Below are positions 853 through 15,375 of a stretch of DNA of 64,000 nt, piece after piece. The notes beneath the pieces were generated by a model. The model was not told the origin of the DNA. It made no database searches and saw nothing but the letters and a program-made list of their open reading frames with translations. Origin of the DNA: Kiritimatiellota bacterium (GTDB lineage Bacteria; Verrucomicrobiota; Kiritimatiellia; JAAZAB01); the NCBI GenBank assembly GCA_026398415.1, contig JAPLSY010000088.1:13633-77632 (forward strand), given 5' to 3'. Positions within the stretch are counted from its first letter, which is position 1. Each line of letters starts with the position of its first letter. The position numbers and the translations under genes were made by a program.

Positions 853-2088
853 TCATGCTTCCATTTGCCAGAATTCATAAAGTCGCTTGGTAAACCGACC
901 AGACTTTATTGACTCTAGTTCCTGATTCAGCGTTTTCAGTTCTGCCTTGTCCTGTTTAGGTTGACGCTCGGCTATCCGGATAGCACGGTCGTAAACTTGT
1001 TCGGCTTTGGTGTTCTTGCCTGCGAGAGCCCAGAGCAGGCCAAGATTCTGCAGAAAGGAGATGAGAGCGCGACTATGAGCGCCGTTAGTGTCCTCCTCGA
1101 TTTGAACCGCCTGTTCAAGAGCATGTAAGCCTTCGTCCTTATCACCGGTTCTGGTCAATGTTAGGGCAAAATTATTCAAGACACTGGGGAGATTGCTGCT
1201 TCCCGTTCCATGCTCTTTTTCGAGGATGGACAGAGCCTGGCGGAATAACCGTTTTGCCTTTTGATACTGCTCTAATGTCACATAGACCAGAGCCAAATTG
1301 TTCATTGTATCTACAACCGACGGGTCTTGTGCGCCCGCTTTTACCCGGCGAATGGCCAGAGAGCGTTTATAGAGCGTCACCGCCTTTTTATTTTCCTTTA
1401 GACCGGTATTGACTTTGGCCAGAGAGTCAAGCATATCAGCAATCCGACTGTCCCGGCAACCGAAAGTCTTTTCACCTAAAGCCAGTGCCGATTGATAGGT
1501 TCTGCGGGCCTTCTTGAGGCTGGCCGCATCCTGATATTTGCCATGCTCCTCGTAGGCACAGCCGAGATGCAAGATGTGCATGACGCGGGTTTCCGCGTCG
1601 GATTGTTCGCAGACCGGCGCGGTAGTCGCGGTCTCCAGACAGCTTATGGCCTGACTGTATTCATCTTTGTCCAGGTGATTCATGCCGAGGTGGTCGAGCA
1701 CATCTGCCGTCGTCTCCAACTCATTGAAATGTTCTTCTTTCGACACTTCGCATGGTGAGTCATTCGCCGGTTCCATATCGGGGATCAGCATCTCATGTAA
1801 TTTGATCTGAATTAGTCCGTCGCCGAGATTTAGCGGTTCATATTCGGGAGTCACTTTCCAGCAGGCGCTCCGGCCATCCCGAACCACACCCAGGATGTTC
1901 AACTTCTTGAGCACCCATGGCGTTTGACATTCCGGGCATTGAGTGACTTTCCCGATCCGTTTTATCTGTTTGACAAGTTCTCGGCCGTCTTTAACCTCGT
2001 GTTCATAATTTTCCGGGCATTGCTTGCACCCGAGAGCCACAACGGCATAATTGCCCGGGAAAGTGAATTGTTTCATGATATTCCTCAT
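853..2088 (-). CDS. TPR-repeat protein (TPR_10/12-like) with N-terminal CxxC...CxxC zinc-ribbon-like segment
   Basis: Multiple TPR-like helical repeats (NLALVYVTLEQYQKAKRLFRQAL, LNNFALTL...). Cys pairs near the N-terminus (CKQCP...CPEC). Confidence 0.65.
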   Translation of the reverse strand: MRNIMKQFTFPGNYAVVALGCKQCPENYEHEVKDGRELVKQIKRIGKVTQCPECQTPWVLKKLNILGVVRDGRSACWKVTPEYEPLNLGDGLIQIKLHEMLIPDMEPANDSPCEVSKEEHFNELETTADVLDHLGMNHLDKDEYSQAISCLETATTAPVCEQSDAETRVMHILHLGCAYEEHGKYQDAASLKKARRTYQSALALGEKTFGCRDSRIADMLDSLAKVNTGLKENKKAVTLYKRSLAIRRVKAGAQDPSVVDTMNNLALVYVTLEQYQKAKRLFRQALSILEKEHGTGSSNLPSVLNNFALTLTRTGDKDEGLHALEQAVQIEEDTNGAHSRALISFLQNLGLLWALAGKNTKAEQVYDRAIRIAERQPKQDKAELKTLNQELESIKSGRFTKRLYEFWQMEA

Positions 2089-2109: not shown

Positions 2110-2850
2110 TCAGTCCCCCTCAGCATATTTCCACTGGTCGTCCTGCGGTTCGGCTTTCCCCTGAAACGCCAGAGTACCCAGATAATTGGCAGCCTTTTCG
2201 ACCCCATTTTTGGCCGCCTTTCGGAGCCATCTCAGCGCCATCTTGTGATTCCTTGCGCCACCAATCCCCTTCTCATAAAAACAGGCCAATGCATATTGGG
2301 CATACCCATGCCCTTTATCCGCAGCACGTGAGAGCAGCCGCCGCGCCTTCAGCTGATTCCTTTTTATTTTAGGTCTATTGGCATAGCCTAAGCCCAATTC
2401 GCATAGGGCCGCAGGATGTCCTTGTTTGGCTGCCAGTCCATACCACCGAATGGCCTGGGCACGATCTTTTTTGATGCCAAGTCCATCATTGTAAATAATC
2501 CCAACATTGTGCTGCGCCGTACTGAGCCCAAGATCCGCGGCCCTTCTGAAATATCCAAGTGCTTTCGTATAATCGCGTCGCACCCCGTGGCCGCGATAAT
2601 ACATACCGCCCACGTCATTTATGGCTATGACATGCCCTTGGGCGGATGCCTTTTTCAACCATGCTAATGCTTCCTTATTGTCGGGATGATCGTTTTGCTG
2701 ATCTAGCAGCATCACGCCCAGCCGCCACTGAGCTTCGGCGTTGCCTGTTTCAGCCAATTTGCGATAGACCGCCATAGCTGACTCCCAATCTCCCTGCTTT
2801 TCACTTGCGATGCCTTTCTTGAGCTTCTTGGCGTCCATTTTCGATGTCAT
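2110..2850 (-). CDS. Sel1-like repeat (SLR) protein
   Basis: Six or more Sel1 repeats with the canonical pattern AQxxLGxxYxxGxGVxxDxxKAxxWYxKAAxQG. Confidence 0.8.
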   Translation of the reverse strand: MTSKMDAKKLKKGIASEKQGDWESAMAVYRKLAETGNAEAQWRLGVMLLDQQNDHPDNKEALAWLKKASAQGHVIAINDVGGMYYRGHGVRRDYTKALGYFRRAADLGLSTAQHNVGIIYNDGLGIKKDRAQAIRWYGLAAKQGHPAALCELGLGYANRPKIKRNQLKARRLLSRAADKGHGYAQYALACFYEKGIGGARNHKMALRWLRKAAKNGVEKAANYLGTLAFQGKAEPQDDQWKYAEGD

Positions 2851-2951
2851 TGTTGCCCCTCCTGTCCATGGTTTTACCTATCGGTGTTTAGCGCCCAAAT
2901 CCCTGAAAACACACTGTTCCTTTTTTCTGGAGCTAATGTAGCATGGACCAT

Positions 2952-3021
2952 AGGACAAACAATGTCCTATCCAATAAATAATTTTATCACGAATTGTGTT
3001 GATCCCTTGTCATGGAAGGGA
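2952..3021. promoter_or_regulatory. Two palindromes (AGGACAaacaaTGTCCT at 2952-2969; TCCCTTgtcatggAAGGGA at 3003-3021) in the 183-bp leader of the WYL regulator gene. Candidate operator/promoter region.
   Basis: Perfect inverted repeats seen directly upstream of the 3034 start, with a TTGATC-17-TAATAA promoter-like spacing overlapping the second palindrome. Confidence 0.3.
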
Positions 3022-3033
3022 TAATAAGACCTT

Positions 3034-4065
3034 ATGAAACGTTTCGATGCCGAGCAAAAGGCTCCTATGGCCAAGGCAAAATTCAAGCCTCAATTTCAGC
3101 GCTTGGTGTTTATCGATCAGAAAATCCGGGCCGGCCGATACCCGAACTGCACCACGCTTTCGCGGGAATGGGAGGTCAGTTACAAGACCATTCAGCGGGA
3201 TATTGATTACCTGAAAGATGCGCACGATGCGCCCATAGAATACGATAAGGCTCATTGTGGCTTTTATTATAAGGCCCCGACATGGTTCCTTCCCGCCGTC
3301 ATGCTCAGCGAAGGGGACATCTTTGCCCTGCTGATCGGCTCGCAGGCGTTGCAGATGTATCAGGGAACCCCGATGGCCAGGGAATTAAAGGCGATTTACG
3401 CCAAGCTGGCGCAATTGTTGCCTGAACAAATCTCCGTTCCGCCCGAATTGATCTTCAACCGGCTGAGTTTTCTGGGCGCTCCTTGCCGTCCAATTAACGC
3501 GGACATCTGGAAGTCGCTGGTCCGCGGGATACTTCATCAGCGGGCAATGTGGATCGAGTACGCGTCTCCACGTTCCAATAAGCCAAAGGAGCACACGATT
3601 CATCCACTGCACATTGCGAACATCGAAGGCGATTGGTATGTCCTGGCACACGAAACGCGGTGGAAAGACATCGCGCAATATGCCGTATCGAGAATCAGGA
3701 AAGCCGAATTACAGGACACTACGTTTGTACCGCCGAGAGGTTTTGACGCCAAGCGGATTCTGAAAGACCGGTTTGGCAAGTTCATTCATGTGGATGGCGG
3801 CAAGAGAATCACGGTTCGCCTGCGATTCAGTCCTGAAACCGCCAACTACATCTCGGAACGATCCTGGCACCCCCAGCAGAAACTACGCATCCTGAGAACC
3901 GGGGAGGCCGAACTACAGTTTCCCGTGGCGGATTTAGCTGACGTTGTGCCGTGGGTGCTGAGTTTCGGCGCCGAGGTCAAGGTGCTTCAGCCGCGGACAC
4001 TACGCGCGGCGATCTTGGCAAGACTGCAGGAAACGCTTATGATGTATCGCGATGGGGGAAAATAA
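3034..4065 (+). CDS. WYL-domain transcriptional regulator (wHTH + WYL + C-terminal WCX; BrxR/CapW/PafBC-like)
   Basis: N-terminal DeoR-like HTH (TLSREWEVSYKTIQRDIDYLKDAHDAPIEYD). WYL core (HTIHPLHIANIEGDWYVLAHETRWKDIAQYAVSRIRKAELQ). Length about 340 aa is typical. Confidence 0.8.
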   Translation: MKRFDAEQKAPMAKAKFKPQFQRLVFIDQKIRAGRYPNCTTLSREWEVSYKTIQRDIDYLKDAHDAPIEYDKAHCGFYYKAPTWFLPAVMLSEGDIFALLIGSQALQMYQGTPMARELKAIYAKLAQLLPEQISVPPELIFNRLSFLGAPCRPINADIWKSLVRGILHQRAMWIEYASPRSNKPKEHTIHPLHIANIEGDWYVLAHETRWKDIAQYAVSRIRKAELQDTTFVPPRGFDAKRILKDRFGKFIHVDGGKRITVRLRFSPETANYISERSWHPQQKLRILRTGEAELQFPVADLADVVPWVLSFGAEVKVLQPRTLRAAILARLQETLMMYRDGGK

Positions 4066-5173
4066 CGCCATGATCATAACCAAAACGCTGATGAAACAGG
4101 GAAAGACGCCGCCGCCGACAGGCGGCACACTGCTGGCTGATGTGCGGACGATGATTCTCACCGCGCGGGAAGGCGTTGCTCGTGCGGTGGACGCCGGCCT
4201 GACGACGCTCTACTGGCATGTTGGCCGGCGCATACGACACGATATCCTGAAAGAACAGCGCGCCGGGTACGGGGAAGGGATTGTCTCCGCACTGGGGAGA
4301 CAATTGGCCGCGGAGTTTGGTCGAGGGTTCTCGGAGAAATCTCTGCGACACATGATACGGTTTGCGGAGGCGTTCTCAGATTTCAAGATTGTCTCATCAC
4401 TGCTGAGACAATTGTCTTGGAGCCATTTCCTTGCTCTGATCTACCTCGATGATCCGCTCAAGCGCGACTTTTACGCCGAGATGTGCCGGATCGAACGCTG
4501 GAACACGCGGACGTTGGCGAAAAAGATCCAGTCCATGCTTTTCGAGCGTACCGCGCTGTCCCGTAAGCCCGCCAAGCTGGCCGAGATGGAATTGAAGCAA
4601 CTGCGGGAAGAAGACAAGTTGACCCCTGACCTGGTCTTTCGTGACCCGTACCTCCTGGACTTCCTGGGGCTGAAGAATACTTACGCAGAGAAAGATGTCG
4701 AGGCCGCCATTCTCCGGGAAATGGAGTCGTTCATCCTTGAACTCGGCGTAGGCTTTGCCTTCATGGAGCGGCAGAAACGGATCACGGTGGACGGCGACGA
4801 TTACTACCTGGACTTGCTTTTCTTTCACCGGCGACTGAAACGGCTGGTGGCCATCGAACTGAAGCTGGGCGATTTCAAACCGGCCGACAAGGGCCAGATG
4901 GAACTTTATCTGCGTTGGCTCGACAAATATGAGCGCCGGGAAGGTGAAGACAGTCCGCTCGGGTTAATCCTGTGCGCCGGGAAGAAGGAAGAGACCGTGC
5001 GCCTGCTCGACATGGAGAAAAGCGGCATCCGGGTTGCTGCCTACTGGACCGAAATCCTGCCCAAGGCACAATTGGAACGGAAACTCCATGAAGCCGTGCT
5101 TCTCGCGCGCGAACGGTTGACGGCCAAAAAGACTGCGGTACGTAAGCGCAAGCGCCTGGACGGAGGAAAGTGA
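4052..5173 (+). CDS. DUF1016/YhcG-family PD-(D/E)xK nuclease (PDDEXK_1)
   Basis: N-terminal YhcG_N signature (LSWSHFLALIYLDDPLKRDFYAEMCRIERWNTRTL). C-terminal nuclease signature (VAIELKLGDFKPADKGQMELYLRWLD...PLGLILCAGKKEE). Start overlaps the WYL gene stop by 14 nt. Confidence 0.8.
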   Translation: MGENNAMIITKTLMKQGKTPPPTGGTLLADVRTMILTAREGVARAVDAGLTTLYWHVGRRIRHDILKEQRAGYGEGIVSALGRQLAAEFGRGFSEKSLRHMIRFAEAFSDFKIVSSLLRQLSWSHFLALIYLDDPLKRDFYAEMCRIERWNTRTLAKKIQSMLFERTALSRKPAKLAEMELKQLREEDKLTPDLVFRDPYLLDFLGLKNTYAEKDVEAAILREMESFILELGVGFAFMERQKRITVDGDDYYLDLLFFHRRLKRLVAIELKLGDFKPADKGQMELYLRWLDKYERREGEDSPLGLILCAGKKEETVRLLDMEKSGIRVAAYWTEILPKAQLERKLHEAVLLARERLTAKKTAVRKRKRLDGGK

Positions 5174-5210
5174 TTATATCCCAAACCGTCTTTACCCACA
5201 AAGGAGCAAC

Positions 5211-6230
5211 ATGAAAAAAAGAAGGCGTGAAGAAGACATGTATCCGGCAATAAAACGATACTTCATAAAGAAATTGGATTGCGAACATATTTCGGTGGAC
5301 TTGCCCGGTCAAAAGAAAGTACACCTGCCTAGAAATCTCAGCAAAAGAGACCCCGATGTCCTTGGTATCACTACTGATGGTGAGGTTGTCGCGGCAGAAG
5401 GCAAATTATTGTCCCAGAGCGGCCAGCCATTTGAGGTATGTATCGAGCAGTTACTCAGCCTCAAGTCTTTTGCTGATCATCTCTATGCCTTCTTCCCAAA
5501 AGAAGAATGGAATGAATTGTCCGCGGATGATGTGAAGACGAACAGGAAACGTCTAAAGAATAAAGGGATTGGGCTAATCTTGGTCGATCAGAAAAGCAGG
5601 TGTTTTGATATCTTGAATGTTCCGCCGAATCCTGATGTCGAGGAGTCGAAACGAGATGCTGTCAAAAAACAGCTTGGCCTTCAGGCTGATGATCGAATTC
5701 CGGATATCGGTTGCTTATCTACATCGGATGCAACAGTTGCCAATAAACTGCTGTGCTTGGTAGACGAAACTATTACCGAAGCCGTGAGAACTGCTTTACG
5801 AAAAGTATTCAAGCAAGCCAAGAAAAAAGGCAAGAACTGGGATGTCTATCCGATTGCAGGCAGCGAAGGATGTGATGCCCGTGTGTTCCGGGTTTACTTT
5901 GATCACGGGGCGGTTGACGTGGAGATAGACCCATTCGGTGCCTACTTGAGAGATGGCAGGCCATGCATTTGGGTTTCCAAAGCGGTAGAAGATGATTTCT
6001 TTGAGACAAAAGGTAGGCGGTGTGACTCGATTGGAACACATGCATACTTTTTAGATAAGGGCGATGTGGTCTCTCTCTATGATGCAACCACGGATAGGGC
6101 GCGGCGGTGTTCCGAAGCTGGGTTCTGGTCATTCCTGATGCACCAGATTCCGTTTCTTGGCCGTTCGCGATCCGGTCTTGAGGATGAACTTGAAGCGGTA
6201 ATTCGCGCGGCCAAACAATTGAAAGGCTAA
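5211..6230 (+). CDS. Hypothetical protein (339 aa) in a low-GC segment. Possible N-terminal PD-(D/E)xK-like motif (DPDVLGI...EVVAAEGK).
   Basis: Long ORF with Lys-rich N-terminus and strong AT bias relative to surroundings. The motif assignment is tentative. No recognisable family. Confidence 0.45.
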   Translation: MKKRRREEDMYPAIKRYFIKKLDCEHISVDLPGQKKVHLPRNLSKRDPDVLGITTDGEVVAAEGKLLSQSGQPFEVCIEQLLSLKSFADHLYAFFPKEEWNELSADDVKTNRKRLKNKGIGLILVDQKSRCFDILNVPPNPDVEESKRDAVKKQLGLQADDRIPDIGCLSTSDATVANKLLCLVDETITEAVRTALRKVFKQAKKKGKNWDVYPIAGSEGCDARVFRVYFDHGAVDVEIDPFGAYLRDGRPCIWVSKAVEDDFFETKGRRCDSIGTHAYFLDKGDVVSLYDATTDRARRCSEAGFWSFLMHQIPFLGRSRSGLEDELEAVIRAAKQLKG

Positions 6231-6293
6231 AAACTATACAGGGTGCCAATATCTGACCCGCACGGTGACCAATTGCTGGTGTGACGGTAACGC

Positions 6294-7370
6294 CTACTTC
6301 TTCTTCCTCAACGCACGCACTTTTCCCCGAAGCTTCCGCCAAGGAACGGTCTTTCTCGGTCCGGGATGGAGCATGGTGTGGCAGTTCGAACAGACTACGA
6401 GGAGATCGTTTCTCGGGTCTATCTGCCGGCGTCCACTGCGCGCCAACGGTCTAATGTGATGCACCTCCGCGAACTTCACGCCGTAGGTTTTTTCAAAGGT
6501 AAAATCACAGACTCGGCATACATATCCATCCTCCAACGCCGCCCGACGATTTCGAGCATCTCTCTCTACTACACGCTTTATGACCTCATGCCTACGTCCC
6601 TCGATAAACCCCTTTTGCTTTTCATCATCTTTTATTTCTATTGGTGTTTGAAAAGGCACCCGATCCTTTTTTCGGATGCACGCCCCTTGCCGAGTCATAC
6701 GATGAAAAAATGCATCGAACTCATCGAAACTCCGAAAACCATTATCTACGGCAATACTTCTGAGTCGAGGAACATGTCTATGAATGTATACGTCTACACG
6801 CTTGGTCTTGACGAATCCATAGATCACTGCCTCAAAACCGCGAATTGATCCGTCATTCACTATTGGATACCACATGGGCTGAAGAACCCAGACAAACGTG
6901 CTTATAACACCAATCCCCAGACCGCTGACTGGGTGCTTAGCGTAATTCTCCAACGCCCTATCGGCATAGTTTCGATCCTTTGCTTTTGCTACAGTCCGCA
7001 GCATCTGCCAAAGACGTTCCCTGTCCCCTTTTTTTCTCAAACAGTGCTCGATAGATCCAAGAGTGCCGCCCACTATGCCCGACCACTTCTTTCTTGCTCT
7101 GTCAATACTTCTCAAGATTTTCGGCGGAAAACCTCTTTCATACACGGCAAGCTTGGCTTCCGGGCCGCATTTACCTTCATAACGAAGAGCGCGATACAAG
7201 GCATCGAACTGTTGCGAAGTTGGCAGTCTCTTTCTACTGGTTAGATAGCTAAAAAATATGCAGAAGACACGTTGAGCACGGTGGTAGTTCCATTCATCAT
7301 TGTGTTTCCGTTTCCAGTCGCGGCGGAAACGACTAAGTTCAACATGTAAATTTCTCGCTCCCATATTCAT
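6294..7370 (-). CDS. HNH-endonuclease-domain protein (C-terminal HNH/ββα-Me; N-terminal about 250-aa domain of unknown function)
   Basis: C-terminal CRVCDFTFEKTYGVKFAEVHHIRPLARSG...NDLLVVCSNCHTMLH, with two Cys pairs flanking His-His as in HNH. Low-GC, convergent with the 5211..6230 gene. Confidence 0.7.
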   Translation of the reverse strand: MNMGARNLHVELSRFRRDWKRKHNDEWNYHRAQRVFCIFFSYLTSRKRLPTSQQFDALYRALRYEGKCGPEAKLAVYERGFPPKILRSIDRARKKWSGIVGGTLGSIEHCLRKKGDRERLWQMLRTVAKAKDRNYADRALENYAKHPVSGLGIGVISTFVWVLQPMWYPIVNDGSIRGFEAVIYGFVKTKRVDVYIHRHVPRLRSIAVDNGFRSFDEFDAFFHRMTRQGACIRKKDRVPFQTPIEIKDDEKQKGFIEGRRHEVIKRVVERDARNRRAALEDGYVCRVCDFTFEKTYGVKFAEVHHIRPLARSGRRQIDPRNDLLVVCSNCHTMLHPGPRKTVPWRKLRGKVRALRKKK

Positions 7371-7580
7371 CCTCCTGTCTTGGTTTAATGCTCCGGGATT
7401 TTTCCGATGGATCCAACCTTAGGCTGAACTCATCCCGTTTTCGGCCCGGTCGGAGCGAAAGAGTTTTATGCCGCGAGTTTGGCACATTTGGTCGCATAGT
7501 CAAGCGGCGACAGATTATAGAGCAGTGATTCTCTGTATTGCCACGTCCAACCACCAGCGGATGTCGTGGCCGACTGCATT

Positions 7581-9050
7581 TCAATGCTTAACGGTGCCTT
7601 GAAGATTGCGCAGAATTCCAATCATCCCGCCCGTATCCTGACCACAATATCGCAAGAGTTGATTCCGTATCTTGCGCCGCTCGGCTGTGCTGACATCGCC
7701 AAATGTAACCCGCAGGAATTCCTGGCTGGCTGTTGATCCGTCTGCAATGGGCAAGTTGTCATAACTCCGCTTTGTCAAGGCCGGCATCACCCGCTTCAAT
7801 GAATTGCTGCCATGCTGGCGAGGATGATAATAGGCGACCTTCCTGAACGGGATAATGAGGTCGTTGATTCGCTTCAGGACTTCACAAACCCACAGTCTGT
7901 GCGCCGGAAATGCTTGAGCCATCTGTTTGAGCATGTTTTTCTCAAAAGCCATGTAGAATACCAGGATCGTCCCGGAACGACCAATGGTATGCTTCAGACT
8001 TTGGAGAAGTTTCGGGCGAGGATCATTCCGGCCTTCGGCCAGAAATGAGTGATGAACTGGCTTCGCCCTTGGCGCATCGAGTACGTGCAGTGAATATTGA
8101 AAAGGTATCTGCTGGTAGGGCTTGGTTCCGTCAAAGATCGGAATGGGTGTGCTGAATGTCTCGAAATCAAGGAGCCTTACGGGATATTCGATCTCCGATA
8201 GGAAGCCTGCGATAGCGGGAGCATCGATATGAGGTCTGTGTGTCCTGAGACTTTTGACTTGGACAGCCTGGTACTTAGTGAATTTAAAGTCCTGCGGAAT
8301 GTCTTTGATTTTGATGATACCGTTCTCAAATAGGTCAAACTTCTTGTTCCCGATCTGGTATAATTCAAAAATATTGTCTTTGGGCAGAAAAGACCAACAG
8401 GCATCCATAAGAGGGCATCCAACCGGTGTGCTGCACTGCGGGCCAATAGGAATCTTTGGACACTTGGCCGCCGCAATTATTTTCCGGATGCGAACAACAT
8501 CTGTGGGAATCGTTCGGAGGTTCGCTTTAACCTCATTGCTGACATGGTGAATGCAGAACAGCTTCTTGATTCTGATCGGACCTCGTTTTACGTATTCCTG
8601 GTTAAGAGTCGCGATGTGGGTATGGTGTATCGGTAGTCCCGACTTATCGCAGACATACTTCTGGAAAGCCACATCCTGGATAAAGTGATCTTCGATATCC
8701 GTTGTGGATTTAACCTCGACAATATCCCATCCGCCTCTGACCGGAACAAGGATGTCAATCTGGGCGTAGAAGTCAGTAAAGGCAATGGCTGCTTCGTAGA
8801 TCGGCTTGCGGCTCAAGAGCGCCTTCCTGGTGGCTGTGATTCGGTCTGAAAGACGGAGAGCTGTATCTATGGCGATACCACCCGGAAAGAGGGACTGAGC
8901 CTGGATGCCAACCTCTTGCCCGCGTTCGATGGCGGATGGAACATCATCACCTTCTGTGACCAAGTCCTTAGGTCTGTGAACCCGAGTCCACAACAACTTT
9001 GAGCACTGGAGCCCCGCCATGTAGTTTGTCTTGGTAATCAGCATCCACAA
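7581..9050 (-). CDS. DUF2779-like predicted nuclease: N-terminal Cas4/RecB-like PD-(D/E)xK domain with 4-Cys cluster plus C-terminal DEDD (RNase H-like) exonuclease-like domain
   Basis: N-terminus MAGLQCSKLLW. Motif QIDILVP...WDIVEVKSTT (D...EVK). Cys cluster CPKIPIGPQCSTPVGCPLMDAC. The RLLDFETFSTPIP motif resembles exonuclease motif I. Confidence 0.55.
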   Translation of the reverse strand: MWMLITKTNYMAGLQCSKLLWTRVHRPKDLVTEGDDVPSAIERGQEVGIQAQSLFPGGIAIDTALRLSDRITATRKALLSRKPIYEAAIAFTDFYAQIDILVPVRGGWDIVEVKSTTDIEDHFIQDVAFQKYVCDKSGLPIHHTHIATLNQEYVKRGPIRIKKLFCIHHVSNEVKANLRTIPTDVVRIRKIIAAAKCPKIPIGPQCSTPVGCPLMDACWSFLPKDNIFELYQIGNKKFDLFENGIIKIKDIPQDFKFTKYQAVQVKSLRTHRPHIDAPAIAGFLSEIEYPVRLLDFETFSTPIPIFDGTKPYQQIPFQYSLHVLDAPRAKPVHHSFLAEGRNDPRPKLLQSLKHTIGRSGTILVFYMAFEKNMLKQMAQAFPAHRLWVCEVLKRINDLIIPFRKVAYYHPRQHGSNSLKRVMPALTKRSYDNLPIADGSTASQEFLRVTFGDVSTAERRKIRNQLLRYCGQDTGGMIGILRNLQGTVKH

Positions 9051-9136: not shown

Positions 9137-10174
9137 TTATGCTTTGTCGAGCGTATCTCCAGATAGGAATACAAGGTCATAGCCGCAATGGTCGACGATG
9201 AATTTGACGAGCGCATCGGATGGGCGCGATTGGATGGCCAACATGCCGTGAGCATTTTGGAGGCGCTGTCTGTAAAGGAACGCGTAGTAGTTGAGTTGGG
9301 CGGCGCCGAGGCGGACTTGACATTCGATGTTGTCGGGCCGGCAGGACTTCACCTCGACTATGATGCGCTTGCGTTTTTTTCGTGCGCTCAGATCCAGATG
9401 CTTGTCCCATTTTATGATATAACCCTGACCTTTCAGATATGCTGCGACCTTGCGCTTGAGAGCCTCGTGATCCCGATAGGACGTTTGAAGCTTCGCATTG
9501 TCCTTCGATAGCCTGATGGTAAACGGACCCGTGTATTCTGGTAACTCCTTGGCAACAAACCGTCGCAGAATCGAGCCGCTGACGGATGAGGGACTTTCCG
9601 TCCCTGTTGTGAGTCGGGAGGGGCGGATGCCTGGGAAGTAGGTATCTGCAATATGATAAAGCCTTGGCGTGGTGTCCCCCGTAAAGCTGCCTCCGCGCCG
9701 ACGAATGGCAAGCATATCAGAGAGGATGTTTCTGGCCTGGACATCCTTCAGATAGGCTATGTATCTGACGGTCTTTGTTCCTGGGGGGAGGTGACGGCTG
9801 GGAAGAAAGGGAAGATAGTTCGGAAGTTTTATGCAGTCTTTCCACCAAGCCTTCAGATTGGTCCAATGTCCGCTCCGCATCTGGGGCGTGAAAACTGTCG
9901 CTCTGGCATAGAAGCCGGTGATGTATCGCATGCCGTCGGCATGATTCTTGGATACGAAGAAGACGATTCCACCGTCCGCGAAGAAGCGCACATCGTTGCC
10001 CCGGTTCTCGAAGAATCCGTACTTCCATTTGTCGCGCGGCGGCCTGAAGTTCCATGATTCGCCGCCGTGGTGTTTACTCGGGTCGGTCGCGACCCACTTG
10101 AACCCTGAGCGGTCTGGGCTCACATCAGTCCATCCTTTGCTGTTCCAAGTCGTGTTGGCCAAGATGAATCGCAT
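9137..10174 (-). CDS. Putative modification-dependent (type IV-like) restriction endonuclease: N-terminal domain of unknown function (possible PUA/EVE-like reader) plus C-terminal PD-(D/E)xK (IIVEVKSC)
   Basis: C-terminal DKHLDL...RIIVEVKSCRPDNIEC...QLNYYAFL fits Mrr-like catalytic core. Only 8 bp downstream of the type IIG gene, so likely co-transcribed. The N-terminal assignment is an inference. Confidence 0.4.
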   Translation of the reverse strand: MRFILANTTWNSKGWTDVSPDRSGFKWVATDPSKHHGGESWNFRPPRDKWKYGFFENRGNDVRFFADGGIVFFVSKNHADGMRYITGFYARATVFTPQMRSGHWTNLKAWWKDCIKLPNYLPFLPSRHLPPGTKTVRYIAYLKDVQARNILSDMLAIRRRGGSFTGDTTPRLYHIADTYFPGIRPSRLTTGTESPSSVSGSILRRFVAKELPEYTGPFTIRLSKDNAKLQTSYRDHEALKRKVAAYLKGQGYIIKWDKHLDLSARKKRKRIIVEVKSCRPDNIECQVRLGAAQLNYYAFLYRQRLQNAHGMLAIQSRPSDALVKFIVDHCGYDLVFLSGDTLDKA

Positions 10175-10182
10175 ATATTCTC

Positions 10183-13083
10183 CTAACCTTCCACGATTTT
10201 GATTTCCTCTTCCGTCAGGCCGTACAGTTCGTACACCAGACGGTCAATCTGCTGGTCGGTCGCCTGCACGGCGTTCTGCAACGTCTCGCGCTCCCGCTCA
10301 CCCTTCGCCGCCCGCAACTTCGGCACCAGCGTCAGCATTTTGTCCACAAGCTCAACAAGCCGGTCGTGGCGGGCACGGTCTGCGGGGTTCTTGAAATCTA
10401 GTCTTGGGAGAGGGATCTGGCGGAAATCCGACGGATTGATGTTTACATTTGGGAAGTGCGCGCGATACCAGTAGTTGATGAGTTTTGAATTGAACACGCC
10501 TAAAACAAATCTGAGTGAATAGTCGCTACCTGCTTTATGAATGATGTTTGCCAAGTTATGCGCGTTGTAATGCAATTCCGTATCTAAAGTCGCGACCAAC
10601 CTGCGAGACAACGATTTATTCCGCATCGCGTGTAAAAGAATCTTTTCTCCGTTGAAGTATCGCTCATCGCGCGGGCACCAGAGCCACTCGCCATATGACA
10701 CAAACTCGCCGCCCCAAAGCACTTCGTAGCGTGCGATATTCTTTCCGCGCAGAAGCCTCTTCCAGCTTTTCCGGGGTTGAAATCCCGTATATTTGGCCTT
10801 CTCTGCATCGGATCCTGTCTTGTAAAGAATAATTCCTTGAGATGAGTCCGTAACGTCGCCAAGCCGAATTTCCCCGGATTCCACTGTCTTAAACAACTTG
10901 GCCTGTCTTGGGTTCGTGTGGACGTTGATCCTGCACGATTCATCTTGCTGAACTACGCTTTGTGCAATCTGGAAAGACTCGTCCCAATCCATCCTCGCCA
11001 CGCGCGTCTTGTCACTCTTGGGATCCAGCTTGTGAATTAAAAGCTTGTGAGTTGCAGTGCCATTGGTGTCCCGAATGTAAAAGAGCAGAACATTGTCAAC
11101 AACCACCCCGGCGAAAACGCCTTGCGGGAGGTCAACCAACTCTGTGATCTTCCCTTGGGTGACGAGGCGCCGGCGCAAAAGCTCATATGAATGTCCCATG
11201 AGAAAGGTGTTGGGCAGAATGTTGCCAAACCGCCCGCTGGTTCTAAGCAGCGAGGTGCCGCGCAGAACGAAAATCTGGTACAGGTCGTATCGTTTCCCAA
11301 GCCTGCCAGCTTCCCCATATGCGGAGGTGTAATAATCGCGATGCTCGGCGGGAATATTCTCGATTTGAACGTATGGCGGATTCCCGATCACGATATCGAA
11401 TCCCCCAACTTTCATGGCGTCGGGGAACTGCACGGGCCAGTCGAAGGCGTGGACACGCTCAAGGTCTGCGGAAACCTTTGAGAAGTCGGAGGCGATAAGT
11501 GAGTTTCCGCATTTGATGTTGTGGTATAGATTTGGCAATGCGCGTTCGTGTTCGTGGAAGAGGGTCATCTGCTGGGAAAGGGTGGTGTCATTTTCGCCTT
11601 CGAGGGCTTTCAGTAGCAACGAGAGCTTGGTGGTTTCGACGGCCTGCGGGTCGATGTCGACGCCGTAGATGTGGGTGGTGAGGATGCGTTTGCGTTCGCC
11701 GATGGAGAGACATGTTTCCCCTTTGGCGTTCTGATAGACGGCTTTGGCGTGTTTTTTAGAGAGGTTTGCCTGATGCCATTTCAGGCAATGGTCCAGCAGA
11801 AACTGATAGGCGCTGAGGAGGAAGGATCCGCTGCCGCAGGCCGGGTCGAGGATGCGAAAGGGGGGCGTGGTTTTGCCGCCAGCGAGATCGGCAGGGCTTT
11901 TGCCTTCAATCTGTTTGCCGATGGTGCTGTGGACGATGTAGTTCACGATATAGGCGGGGGTGTAGTATACGCCGCCGGCCTTGCGCACTTCGGGCTTTTC
12001 CTCGACTTTGGCCTGGTGTCCGGCGGTCAGGCGAATGACTTTGCCGAGGAAGCGTTCGTACACCGTACCGAGGATTTCCACGGGCATGACGCCGAAGTGG
12101 TATGGGCAACCGTGTTCGAAGTAGAGGCTTTGGAGAATGGGCTTGAGGGCATTGTCGTCCACGGCCAGACTCGGCGTGAGGGTGTCCGGCGCATCGGAGA
12201 CGCCGATTTCTTTCTGGAAGTGGAACAGGCCGGAGTTGTATTTCTGATCGGCCTTGCGGCACACGCCGCTCATAAAACGGTTGTAGATGTCCGGCTGTTC
12301 ACAGAGCTTGAGCAGTTGCCCGTAAGATTCCAGTCCGCGATCCTCGGCCATGCGCAGGAAAATGAGCCGGTCAATGATCCGTTGAACGGCGGCTGTGAGG
12401 TCTTCTTCCGACGACAAATCGCTGTTTCGCAGGGCGAGGTTTCGTGCCAGCACATCGCGCCAGCCTTCAATATCCTTCAAAAACTCGCTATCAACCTCGG
12501 AGGTGCCTCGCTTACGCTTGGAGGCAGCATACTTGTCGAACGTCCCAGACCAGATGGCCTCGCGCGAGAAAACGTCCCAAATCTCCCGCCAACGGTCAGG
12601 ATACTCGGTGAACCCGAAATACTGGATACGGGCATGGCTGGCCTTATCGCCGGGTCGCGGGCGAGCGGCGCAATCGTAAACGCCCAGTTCATCGAAGTCG
12701 GTCAGGATGGACAGAGCTAACTTGGCGCTGAAACCGTAGCGGCGAAGTTGAAAGGCTGGCGCGGGATCGGCGCTGATATTGACGCCGCACTTTTTGGCTT
12801 CGACGTAGAACTTCGGCAATGTGCCGATGCGGAAGGTGTAGTCGGGTGCCTTCAGTTGGCCTTCCACATCCAAACTGTCTTCGGTAATGACTTCGCGATA
12901 TTGGGGTGCGGTCATGGAGTGGTTGCGCACGTCCCAACCAAGGGCCTCGAAAAAAGGGTCTATGAGCGATTGGCGGACGTGAGCTTCCTTGACTCCAGGG
13001 GCGAGGAAGGACTGCCGGTTAGAGGTGAAGTACTGACATAGCTTTGCAACTTCATCTTTGCCTTGGTCGAATGTTTTACTCAT
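10183..13083 (-). CDS. Type IIG/IIL restriction-modification enzyme (MmeI/Eco57I-like): N-terminal PD-(D/E)xK endonuclease, central N6-adenine methyltransferase, C-terminal target-recognition domain
   Basis: N-terminal DYTFRIGTLPKFYVEAKK (D...EAK). SAM motif I ILDPACGSGSFLL. Motif IV IGNPPYVQ. 966 aa in a single polypeptide. Confidence 0.85.
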   Translation of the reverse strand: MSKTFDQGKDEVAKLCQYFTSNRQSFLAPGVKEAHVRQSLIDPFFEALGWDVRNHSMTAPQYREVITEDSLDVEGQLKAPDYTFRIGTLPKFYVEAKKCGVNISADPAPAFQLRRYGFSAKLALSILTDFDELGVYDCAARPRPGDKASHARIQYFGFTEYPDRWREIWDVFSREAIWSGTFDKYAASKRKRGTSEVDSEFLKDIEGWRDVLARNLALRNSDLSSEEDLTAAVQRIIDRLIFLRMAEDRGLESYGQLLKLCEQPDIYNRFMSGVCRKADQKYNSGLFHFQKEIGVSDAPDTLTPSLAVDDNALKPILQSLYFEHGCPYHFGVMPVEILGTVYERFLGKVIRLTAGHQAKVEEKPEVRKAGGVYYTPAYIVNYIVHSTIGKQIEGKSPADLAGGKTTPPFRILDPACGSGSFLLSAYQFLLDHCLKWHQANLSKKHAKAVYQNAKGETCLSIGERKRILTTHIYGVDIDPQAVETTKLSLLLKALEGENDTTLSQQMTLFHEHERALPNLYHNIKCGNSLIASDFSKVSADLERVHAFDWPVQFPDAMKVGGFDIVIGNPPYVQIENIPAEHRDYYTSAYGEAGRLGKRYDLYQIFVLRGTSLLRTSGRFGNILPNTFLMGHSYELLRRRLVTQGKITELVDLPQGVFAGVVVDNVLLFYIRDTNGTATHKLLIHKLDPKSDKTRVARMDWDESFQIAQSVVQQDESCRINVHTNPRQAKLFKTVESGEIRLGDVTDSSQGIILYKTGSDAEKAKYTGFQPRKSWKRLLRGKNIARYEVLWGGEFVSYGEWLWCPRDERYFNGEKILLHAMRNKSLSRRLVATLDTELHYNAHNLANIIHKAGSDYSLRFVLGVFNSKLINYWYRAHFPNVNINPSDFRQIPLPRLDFKNPADRARHDRLVELVDKMLTLVPKLRAAKGERERETLQNAVQATDQQIDRLVYELYGLTEEEIKIVEG

Positions 13084-13325: not shown

Positions 13326-13865
13326 TCAATCCGCCTTAAAACCAATCCGTTTTCTTGTCGGTTCCGGCGGGCGCATGAGTTCTCTGATTGCGTCGAAAAC
13401 GGCTTTGAATTGCACGTCGTATTTCTTCTCAAGTTCGGCCAGCTTGTGCGCCAGTTCGACGTTTGAGGTCAACCATTGGCGGATACGAACAAAGGCGCGC
13501 ATGATTTCAATGTTCACACTTACCGCGCGCGGGCTGTGCAACACGCTTGACAGCATGGCAACGCCCTGCTCGGTGAAGGCATAGGCCGGTTTCCGTCTGC
13601 CGCCGTGTCCATAACTTGAAGTGCCAAATTGGAACATCAAGTTTGTAAGTTCCTGCGGTTCAAGTTGAAGCATGAAGTCATCAGGGAAGCGTTCGCGGTT
13701 GCGTTTCACGGCCCGATTGAGTGCCTTGGTTTCCACGCCATACAGCGCGGCCAGGTCGCTATCCAACATAATCTTCTGGCCGCGGAGAAGCATGATTTTC
13801 TTTTCAATACTTGCCGCAGGTATCAGGTCGGTCTTGTTAGGCTTAGGCATGGGCAGGGACTTCAA
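13326..13865 (-). CDS. ORF6N-domain (KilA-N-like) DNA-binding protein
   Basis: [45 protein letters not shown] matches the ORF6N N-terminal signature. Confidence 0.7.
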
Positions 13866-14070: not shown

Positions 14071-15375
14071 CTATATCATGTCATGAAGTAATGAAGCAAG
14101 CAGTTTGTCACGCTGGGCACGCCAATTTTTGGCGGTCATGGATTTCAGGATGGCACAAATTGCAGCCTTGTCGATCTTGCCGGGATTGTCGGTGAGTGGA
14201 GGTAGCGCCGGTGCATTGCCGATTAAGACGGGCATGGAGCCTACGGCTTCCTTCATTGCCTTTTCCCCGACATGCGTATAAGTGTCGTGCATGGCCAGCG
14301 TTGAATGGCCCACAATCGCCATTGTCACCGAAAGCGGTGCGCCTGCTTCCCGGAGCAGGGAAACGGCGGAATGTCGTAATGAATGAAATCCGGCGGAGAT
14401 AACCTTGCGAACACCGTGGCCGTCTCGTTTTGTCACAATCCCATTTTTCTCGAAATGCTGTTGAACAATCTTGGATACCGCATACGGCCCTGTTTCCGTA
14501 TAAAGTTTTGCCATTTTCGGGAGAATATAGCCTTGCCGATTTTCCGGCGGTATTTCAGCAAGGATATTCGCAAGGGTAGGGTGCAAAGGAACAGTCAATT
14601 CCTTGCCGTTTCTCCTGGCCGTTTTGCGCGGCATATACCGGATCAAGCCCCGCTTCAGGTCTATGTTGCCCCATTCCATTGTCGCGGCGTCCGCCAGGCG
14701 TGCCCCCAGGTAGAGCCCCAGGGCCAGCATGAGGCGGAGTTCACCTTCCGCGCTTTGACATATTCGCTTTAATTCCTCGACGGTTAATTCCCGGCGGCTT
14801 TGCGGCGCCAGTCCTTTTTTCCGTTGGATCTCCTCCCACGGATTATTCTCTATTCTGGCTTTATCCTTCAGGACACGGAAAACCAGTTCACAGACGCGGA
14901 CATGCTTATTGAACGTGTTGGCCGTGACGCCCCGGCCCGCCAGGTGTGCGGCATATTCCCCGGCAATTTCCATATTCACACCCCGCAGGCTTTTAATGTC
15001 AGGATGTTTTTCAACAAGCCAGCGTTCAAAACAGCCCCATTGCAGGGCGTAGGTTGCCAGCGTAGCCTTGCCGCTGTCAGGCCGGTTAGAAGCCTTTTCG
15101 TAATTATCCCAGGTGGCAACGATGCTTAATGGCGGGTTTCTCTTTCCATTAAGGATGGCCAATTCATCTTTTGCCCCTTCAATCCGGGCTTTCACGTTCT
15201 GAAGGGTTTTGATTTCATCTTCGACCAGAAACGGCTCCATGATTTCAGCCAAGCGTTTTTCCGCTTCCCGGCGGACGGTCCGGCTGGTAGTCTTCATAAA
15301 TTTCTTGCCTGCCACCGTCCAACAGGCATAATAGGTTTTGTTTCGGAGAATGAGGTAGCCTTTACGTGTTTTCAT
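14071..15375 (-). CDS. Tyrosine site-specific integrase/recombinase
   Basis: C-terminal catalytic region HSLRHSAVSLLREAGAPLSVTMAIVGHSTLAMHDTYTHV (R...HxxR...Y). N-terminal SAM-like arm-binding region. Confidence 0.9.
   Translation of the reverse strand: MKTRKGYLILRNKTYYACWTVAGKKFMKTTSRTVRREAEKRLAEIMEPFLVEDEIKTLQNVKARIEGAKDELAILNGKRNPPLSIVATWDNYEKASNRPDSGKATLATYALQWGCFERWLVEKHPDIKSLRGVNMEIAGEYAAHLAGRGVTANTFNKHVRVCELVFRVLKDKARIENNPWEEIQRKKGLAPQSRRELTVEELKRICQSAEGELRLMLALGLYLGARLADAATMEWGNIDLKRGLIRYMPRKTARRNGKELTVPLHPTLANILAEIPPENRQGYILPKMAKLYTETGPYAVSKIVQQHFEKNGIVTKRDGHGVRKVISAGFHSLRHSAVSLLREAGAPLSVTMAIVGHSTLAMHDTYTHVGEKAMKEAVGSMPVLIGNAPALPPLTDNPGKIDKAAICAILKSMTAKNWRAQRDKLLASLLHDMI

Follow-up and report, generated by a model that had tools for sequence, protein, structure and literature searches.

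WYL domains bind single-stranded DNA (ssDNA), and this binding switches the promoter binding of the repressor CapW (PMC11662680), and likewise that of the activators DriD (PMC9186387) and PafBC (PMC11804915). In the case of BrxR, the inverted repeats of the operator have a 5-bp spacer and lie just downstream of the -10 element (PMC9122601). The DUF1016 family is known from the neighbourhood of restriction-modification (R-M) genes: a 'DUF1016 family protein' is enriched (odds ratio 17.4) beside inversion-targeted hsdS and type IIG genes, and a DUF1016 gene is found directly upstream of type IIG enzymes (PMC9881135). The PDC candidates of PADLOC go back to genes found inside type I R-M, BREX and DISARM systems (bioRxiv 10.1101/2024.01.29.577857). 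Here we describe a locus in which a WYL-family regulator gene is followed by a DUF1016/YhcG nuclease gene, located in a 64,000-nucleotide stretch (the window) of contig JAPLSY010000088.1 from a Kiritimatiellota bacterium (assembly GCA_026398415.1).

A preliminary description of this DNA had put the two genes forward as a candidate two-gene defence module. Our analysis makes it probable that the locus is instead modular, with an autoregulated WYL sensor heading a variable cargo slot that is now filled by a PDC-S02 nuclease. The locus defines no new defence system and holds an already catalogued single-gene candidate, PDC-S02. The two genes are:

3034-4065, forward strand: WYL-family transcription factor with WYL and WCX domains and a probable winged helix-turn-helix (wHTH), 343 amino acids (Pfam, PADLOC)
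4070-5173, forward strand: DUF1016/YhcG PD-(D/E)xK nuclease, PADLOC PDC-S02, 367 amino acids (Pfam, PADLOC)

The WYL regulator

The regulator contains a WYL domain (PF13280, 1.3e-13, residues 159-225) and a WCX domain (PF25583, 1.6e-18, residues 258-334), as first described, and matches the PADLOC WYL models at 1e-32. Its N-terminus matches HTH_11 weakly, at 17.4 bits where the cut-off is 25. Strong conservation is seen over residues 20-80, with R23, T52, R55 and D56 invariant and the motif KTIQRDIDYL, and the PADLOC WYL model PDLC01457 aligns the protein from residue 22. The G-E/D-W-Y-L motif is conserved among the homologues, which number 479 and are mostly 325-330 amino acids long. Translation from 3034 and from an alternative start at M12 (3067) are both possible. 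The locus L097, a relative whose regulator is 92% identical, carries ATA in place of the M12 codon, so that translation there must begin at the upstream ATG (M1), and the regulator of L011 (77-78% identical) starts at the equivalent of M12.

When the profile of the clade was compared with solved structures, PafBC (8.6e-20) and DriD (1e-14) were both matched over the WYL and WCX domains, and BrxR (1.4e-9) and CapW (8e-7) in the WYL domain only. That the WYL protein is a regulator encoded 5' of the nuclease gene is supported, but the BrxR/CapW-type label it had been given is not, the profile being nearer to PafBC and DriD. By analogy with CapW, DriD and PafBC, ssDNA is the probable ligand.

These relationships bring in the alternative that the locus is a DNA-damage-response unit, in which a DriD/PafBC-like activator would control the DUF1016 protein as an inducible repair or recombination nuclease with no part in immunity. 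PafBC and DriD are the best relatives of the regulator, nucleases such as bapE and recJ belong to DriD regulons (PMC9186387), and in two homologue loci DnaE2-like polymerase genes lie downstream. Against it stand the close relatives of the DUF1016 gene in R-M operons and on conjugative plasmids, the setting of the locus, a low-GC island with an integrase and R-M, HNH and DUF2779 genes, and an operator that follows a -10-like element and does not lie upstream of a -35 element. We regard this alternative as unlikely, if the foremost of those considered here.

A conserved putative operator behind a -10-like element

The leader of the regulator gene holds the following elements.

2934-2944, forward strand: -10-like elements TAATGT (2934-2939) and TAGCAT (2939-2944), putative promoter of the WYL operon
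2950-2970, no strand assigned: inverted repeat IR1, ATAGGACA-n5-TGTCCTAT, predicted operator with the core GGACA-N5-TGTCC at 2953-2967
3002-3022, forward strand: inverted repeat IR2, ATCCCTT-n7-AAGGGAT, lineage-specific, its right arm overlapping the Shine-Dalgarno-like AAGGGA before the ATG at 3034

The arms of IR1 are 8 nt long and perfectly complementary. Its exact core, GGACA-N5-TGTCC, occurs once in the 64 kb against an expectation of 0.08, and 44 of 77 WYL homologues have a match to at least 9 of the 10 core positions in the 250 nt upstream. Core sites were found at 57 of 19,139 upstream positions, compared with 52 of 732,320 positions elsewhere in the same loci, an approximately 42-fold enrichment. 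Two core sites about 44 nt apart are present in 13 loci, where a GGAGG Shine-Dalgarno sequence follows the proximal site. IR1 aligns in register with L097, L011 and L028, and this comparative evidence predicts it to be the conserved operator of a WYL clade belonging mostly to the Planctomycetes-Verrucomicrobia-Chlamydiae (PVC) group.

The window, L097, L011 and L028 all retain 'AATGTAGCAT' and align in register over 'AATGTAGCAT-n-ATAGGACAAACAnTGTCCTA'. Among 45 distal operator sites, 22 have TAnnnT at an offset from GGACA of either -19/-18 (11 sites) or -14 (11 sites), compared with about 0.3 per position elsewhere, and TAATGT and TAGCAT of the window fall at exactly these enriched offsets, 14-19 nt before the core. 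A consensus scan did not call a full sigma-70 promoter at 2934-2944. The operator is predicted to lie at about the transcription start, just after the -10-like element, and this geometry favours auto-repression by the WYL regulator.

IR2 was rejected as a second operator or conserved leader hairpin, since its left arm decays without compensation (ATCCCCC in L097, ACCCGCC in L011). The right arm is constant and coincides with a conserved Shine-Dalgarno-like or -10-like stretch. In homologues with two sites, the second is another copy of GGACA-N5-TGTCC and not IR2, and a search of the leader and operon region against Rfam at E<=1 gave no match. The repeats earlier described as two perfect palindromes are both present, but they are interrupted inverted repeats (n5 and n7), and of the two only IR1 is a conserved element.

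The nuclease and the gene junction

Both Pfam domains of the nuclease, DUF1016_N (1.5e-44) and YhcG_C (2.3e-45), are full length, and the PADLOC PDC-S02 hidden Markov model (HMM) is matched over its full length at 5.7e-124. Across 33 homologues, the positions of D248, E263 and K265 (numbered from the 4070 start; codons at 4811-4813, 4856-4858 and 4862-4864) hold an invariant residue or E/D. The identification of a full-length DUF1016/YhcG nuclease with an intact catalytic motif is borne out, but the family, which had been described as functionally uncharacterised, is already listed among the PADLOC candidates. No relatives of DUF1016 were detected in the PDB by single sequence or by profile. 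An AlphaFold2 (AF2) model built from 33 close homologues was poor, with a predicted local distance difference test (pLDDT) score of 54.5, and Foldseek against the PDB gave nothing significant; a weak ParB/Noc-like match of the helical N-domain (E 0.26) was not relied on.

Two features at the 3' end of the regulator gene bear on how the nuclease gene is expressed.

4054-4059, forward strand: Shine-Dalgarno-like GGGGGA, 10 nt before the ATG at 4070, in the last WYL codons
4015-4043, forward strand: sigma-70-like TTGGCA-17-TATGAT inside the WYL 3' end, 10/12 in the consensus scan

The start at 4070 leaves a 4-nt gap after the WYL stop codon (4063-4065). It is used in all ten gene calls listed for Logan contigs, which are of the same strain (14 contigs carry the protein), and in NCBI protein P0121, which comes from a Kiritimatiellaeota metagenome-assembled genome (MAG), is 367 amino acids long and is 100% identical to the nuclease. 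The GGGGGA site is identical in L097. A start at the ATG at 4052 would add six residues that have no counterpart in homologues. The 14-nt overlap of the two genes reported previously was based on this first ATG and gives way to the 4-nt gap, while the tight same-strand linkage remains. No terminator-like site was found between the genes, which are probably co-transcribed.

The sigma-70-like site at 4015-4043 is one of 4 promoter-like matches in the region, not above the shuffle expectation of 2.9, and its conservation in L097 and L188 is uninformative because it lies in coding sequence. As a consensus match it gives a weak indication of a possible internal promoter, from which basal expression of the cargo would be independent of the regulator. 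It is also one of the points that can be cited for a chance juxtaposition in a mosaic island, in which the genes would have no functional link, the DUF1016 gene would have its own promoter, and the cargo might be inactive in this host. The mosaic composition of the island, the turnover of cargo right at the stop codon and the negative test of a PDC-S02 representative (bioRxiv 10.1101/2024.09.26.614923) fit such a view. However, the reading frame is intact and its catalytic residues are invariant, the junction is identical in a diverged relative, and the 4-nt spacing makes read-through from the WYL promoter almost unavoidable; chance juxtaposition is the least probable of the explanations we weighed.

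The variable slot downstream of the regulator

A profile of 45 homologues was used to collect 80 WYL loci from species-representative genomes (33-77% identical), 66 of which have at least 1.1 kb of downstream sequence. The loci come mostly from Kiritimatiellia, Lentisphaerae and Verrucomicrobiota, with some from Desulfobacterota and Acidobacteriota; a scan of viral contigs with the WYL profile found no relatives. Genes downstream of the WYL homologues vary in size, strand and family, and in 37 of 72 homologues a same-strand gene lies within 260 nt. Defence-like cargo includes a DrmD/BrxH-like SNF2 helicase, PDC-M27A, PDC-M51A, PDC-S26 and HEC-09, as well as DUF2779, PDDEXK_1, Macro and ADP-ribosylglycohydrolase genes. 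Two homologues (among loci L011-L090) precede genes for a DnaE2-like polymerase III alpha subunit (DNA_pol3_alpha, PHP, HHH_6), a hint that some of the clade controls genes for DNA-damage tolerance and not for defence.

The slot varies also among the closer relatives of the regulator.

L188, regulator 85% identical: followed by a PDDEXK_4/PDC-S26-like gene of 251 amino acids
L189, regulator 82% identical: followed by a convergent SNF2-type helicase fragment
L011, regulator 77-78% identical: followed directly by a convergent DUF2779 gene, 80% identical to that of the window

Similarity between the window and L188 stops at the WYL stop codon. L011 is from a Verrucomicrobiota MAG, and because its WYL gene is directly followed by DUF2779, comparison of window positions 4020-7590 with L011 positions 1195-1270 shows that the window has about 3.5 kb extra between these two genes, made up of the DUF1016 gene, a third gene (gene 3) and an HNH gene. 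This block was either inserted in the window or deleted in L011.

The WYL-DUF1016 pair itself was found again in a single lineage only, namely in the 14 contigs that encode the identical nuclease protein and in L097, where the contig ends 22 nt into the DUF1016 gene (MIINKTL). No DUF1016 gene was found by tblastn or the family HMM in the flanks of any of the 80 WYL loci. From the side of the nuclease, the survey covered 80 metagenomic loci with 66-82% identity (50 of them with upstream sequence of 1 kb or more), 6 loci of an 85% relative, 40 viral-contig loci with 28-67% identity and 146 plasmid DNA matches. An HMM that also detects BrxR and CapW found no WYL protein at the 86 metagenomic or the 40 viral loci, and none of the 146 plasmid matches reached the WYL gene, the DUF1016 part of the query alone being covered. 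A literature search found no paper that mentions both DUF1016 and WYL.

These surveys bear directly on the proposal of a dedicated two-gene defence system, in which the WYL and DUF1016 proteins would have co-evolved as sensor and effector that function only together. The genes are 4 nt apart on one strand with the Shine-Dalgarno sequence inside the WYL gene, the pair is kept in the 14 contigs and in L097, and the island also contains R-M and other nuclease genes. However, such a system is unsupported because the adjacency is not conserved, being absent from the 80 WYL loci, the 126 DUF1016 loci and the 146 plasmid matches; a lack of such conservation had been named in the preliminary description as refuting the module. 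In addition, regulators 77-85% identical carry different cargo, all copies of the pair belong to one lineage with the same flanks, which points to vertical inheritance and not to independent co-occurrence, and the G+C content at third codon positions (GC3) differs between the WYL gene (0.64) and the DUF1016 gene (0.70). We consider a dedicated system very unlikely.

Relatives of the nuclease in R-M operons

DUF1016 occurs independently of WYL, and its close relatives lie inside type I, type III and type IIG R-M operons. Among 88 immediate neighbours of DUF1016 relatives were ResIII (9), HSDR_N (8), SWI2_SNF2 (5), Eco57I (5), T1R_D3 (4) and Methylase_S (3), and adjoining start and stop codons often overlap by 4 nt. 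One relative lies between mod and res, in the order N6_N4_Mtase, DUF1016 and ResIII, and another forms part of an hsdM-DUF1016-hsdS-hsdR operon on an IncHI1B plasmid. For an accessory gene, conservation within the clade is unusually high: the 120 best of more than 8000 matches are 73-87% identical, although they are labelled with several phyla. The 146 plasmids, of which 116 are conjugative, match DUF1016 at 60-80% DNA identity (66-71% in the 25 listed).

Given this company, the DUF1016 protein could serve the type IIG enzyme of the island as a PrrC-like accessory or back-up effector, with the WYL gene a mere upstream neighbour. R-M genes dominate the neighbourhoods of its relatives, including Eco57I-type IIG genes (5 of the 88 neighbours), DUF1016 has been reported directly in front of type IIG enzymes (PMC9881135), and the window has a type IIG gene at 10183-13083. 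That gene, however, is 5 kb off on the opposite strand with four genes between, the DUF1016 gene starts 4 nt past the WYL stop codon with its Shine-Dalgarno sequence inside the WYL gene, and L011 has the WYL-to-DUF2779 segment without DUF1016. An accessory role of this kind is unlikely as well, and ranks below the damage-response unit.

Gene 3 and the surrounding island

Beyond the nuclease gene, the window contains the following genes up to the integrase.

5211-6230, forward strand: gene 3, 339 amino acids, rare family, 37 nt downstream of the DUF1016 gene
6294-7370, reverse strand: HNH gene (family scans)
7581-9050, reverse strand: DUF2779 gene, convergent to the WYL and DUF1016 genes (family scans)
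9137-10174, reverse strand: open reading frame (ORF) of 345 amino acids between the DUF2779 and type IIG R-M genes
10183-13083, reverse strand: type IIG R-M enzyme (PADLOC REase_MTase_IIG, 7.5e-173)
13326-13865, reverse strand: Rha/anti-repressor-like gene (phrog_4792, 1e-26), adjoining the tyrosine integrase
14071-15375, reverse strand: tyrosine integrase (family scans)

Gene 3 may be on the same transcript as the DUF1016 gene, the interval between them being free of terminator-like sites. It has no match in Pfam, NCBIfam, PHROG or PADLOC and belongs to a rare family, with 12 word-indexed homologues and 112 representative clusters out of 1.84 billion. In its confident AF2 model (pLDDT 83.6) the N-domain has a PD-(D/E)xK fold matching PaqCI, XisH, NucS and Can2. 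The gene is compositionally distinct (GC3 0.47), and its homologues sit in other contexts, including mobile-element ones. It was rejected as the true conserved partner, the 12 homologues having no WYL or DUF1016 gene directly upstream. At L181, a locus with a gene 3 homologue, a 55%-identical WYL gene lies about 4 kb away, beyond DUF2779.

The neighbourhood agrees with the preliminary description, HNH, DUF2779, type IIG R-M and integrase genes all being recovered by family scans, and the 345-amino-acid ORF had no match in Pfam, PADLOC, NCBIfam or PHROGs. The low-GC patch is also real, with a G+C content of 0.48-0.55 over the first 1-16 kb against 0.587 over 20-64 kb. Of the claim of an integrase-bounded island, the integrase and the mobile, defence-like context are confirmed, but one side of the island alone is visible in the window. 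The Rha/anti-repressor-like gene adjoins the tyrosine integrase, a pairing suggestive of an integrative element or the remains of a prophage; a search across the 64-kb window found no tRNA gene. On the other side of the leader, a Sel1-repeat gene is divergent from the WYL gene both in the window (2110-2850 and 853-2088, reverse strand) and in L097 (28-768). A Sel1/TPR gene (7070-7774 in L028) also adjoins a 51%-identical WYL homologue.

Proposed function and significance

In the modular locus that we favour, the wHTH-WYL-WCX factor would bind the conserved operator GGACA-N5-TGTCC (IR1) and most likely repress its own promoter and the gene or genes co-transcribed with it, from a position after the -10-like element. 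The slot immediately after the WYL stop codon, which varies among related genomes, would here place a DUF1016/YhcG nuclease under this control. By analogy with CapW, BrxR, DriD and PafBC, the WYL domain may bind ssDNA arising from DNA damage or phage replication, which would alter its contact with the operator and increase nuclease expression. The enzyme might then cut the DNA of an invader, or that of its own cell in an abortive infection.

Several observations weigh against this reading. In sequence the regulator resembles PafBC and DriD, which are activators, more closely than the repressors BrxR and CapW, and its effect on transcription could therefore be of either sign. The promoter-like site at 4015-4043 could make the nuclease partly independent of the regulator. 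Genes downstream of distant homologues are often housekeeping-like (glycosyl hydrolase, MatE, lipid A acyltransferase), and for this reason the WYL clade is not strictly defence-associated. Finally, in the one published test, a PDC-S02 representative gave no protection against T4, T5 and T7 in E. coli B (bioRxiv 10.1101/2024.09.26.614923).

A more specific and tentative proposal is that this lineage rewired an R-M-embedded nuclease to the control of an ssDNA-sensing WYL regulator, giving a stand-alone defence or abortive-infection nuclease inducible by damage or infection. Put forward jointly with it, and equally speculative, is the idea that the PVC WYL clade with GGACA-N5-TGTCC provides a portable 'sensor-promoter head' behind which effectors are exchanged exactly at the stop codon.

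If the modular locus is correctly understood, it adds one more case of WYL regulators gating potentially toxic defence genes, a principle known from BrxR and CapW. It provides a defined operator and promoter geometry for a WYL clade of mostly PVC-group bacteria that can be tested directly. Even where two regulators share 77-92% identity, the slot that follows them changes content at the stop codon, and WYL-headed slots could be mined for new effectors. The locus also supplies a natural regulated context for DUF1016/PDC-S02, which is among the most widespread R-M-embedded candidate genes. Should the rewiring proposal be true, this would be a natural inducible context in which PDC-S02 could finally show a phenotype.

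Comparison with known systems

PrrC is an ABC-ATPase anticodon nuclease. It has no sequence or domain relation to DUF1016, and coupling to R-M is absent in cis in the window. The likeness is one of position, as DUF1016 relatives also fill internal slots of R-M operons, for example hsdM-X-hsdS-hsdR, and by this analogy the arrangement suggests that DUF1016 in R-M operons may be a latent, PrrC-like effector coupled to R-M status. With PDC-S02 the resemblance is close, the window nuclease matching the HMM over its full length with both Pfam domains and the catalytic motif. Unlike the embedded PDC genes, however, it does not lie within an R-M, BREX or DISARM system; a WYL gene precedes it, and 5 kb separate it from the nearest R-M gene, which is encoded on the opposite strand.

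DriD and PafBC are ssDNA sensors and WYL activators of SOS-independent DNA-damage responses, and they are the best profile matches of the window clade over the WYL and WCX domains. DriD also binds a palindromic site of about 20 bp in its own promoter (PMC9186387). Their targets, however, are chromosomal repair regulons, whereas the window gene stands before a variable cargo slot and lies in a mobile island, and the position of its operator relative to the -10-like element suggests repression.

The similarity to BrxR and CapW is confined to the WYL domain and is weaker than that to DriD and PafBC, the operator sequence of the window (GGACA-N5-TGTCC) is another, and the window clade comes mostly from PVC bacteria, with many members beside non-defence genes. 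What the window regulator shares with BrxR and CapW is its organisation. The order of the probable wHTH, WYL and WCX domains is the same and the gene stands first in its probable operon; the putative operator resembles that of BrxR (PMC9122601) in consisting of inverted arms 5 bp apart that directly follow the -10 element; and regulators of the BrxR/CapW family front many different defence cargos.

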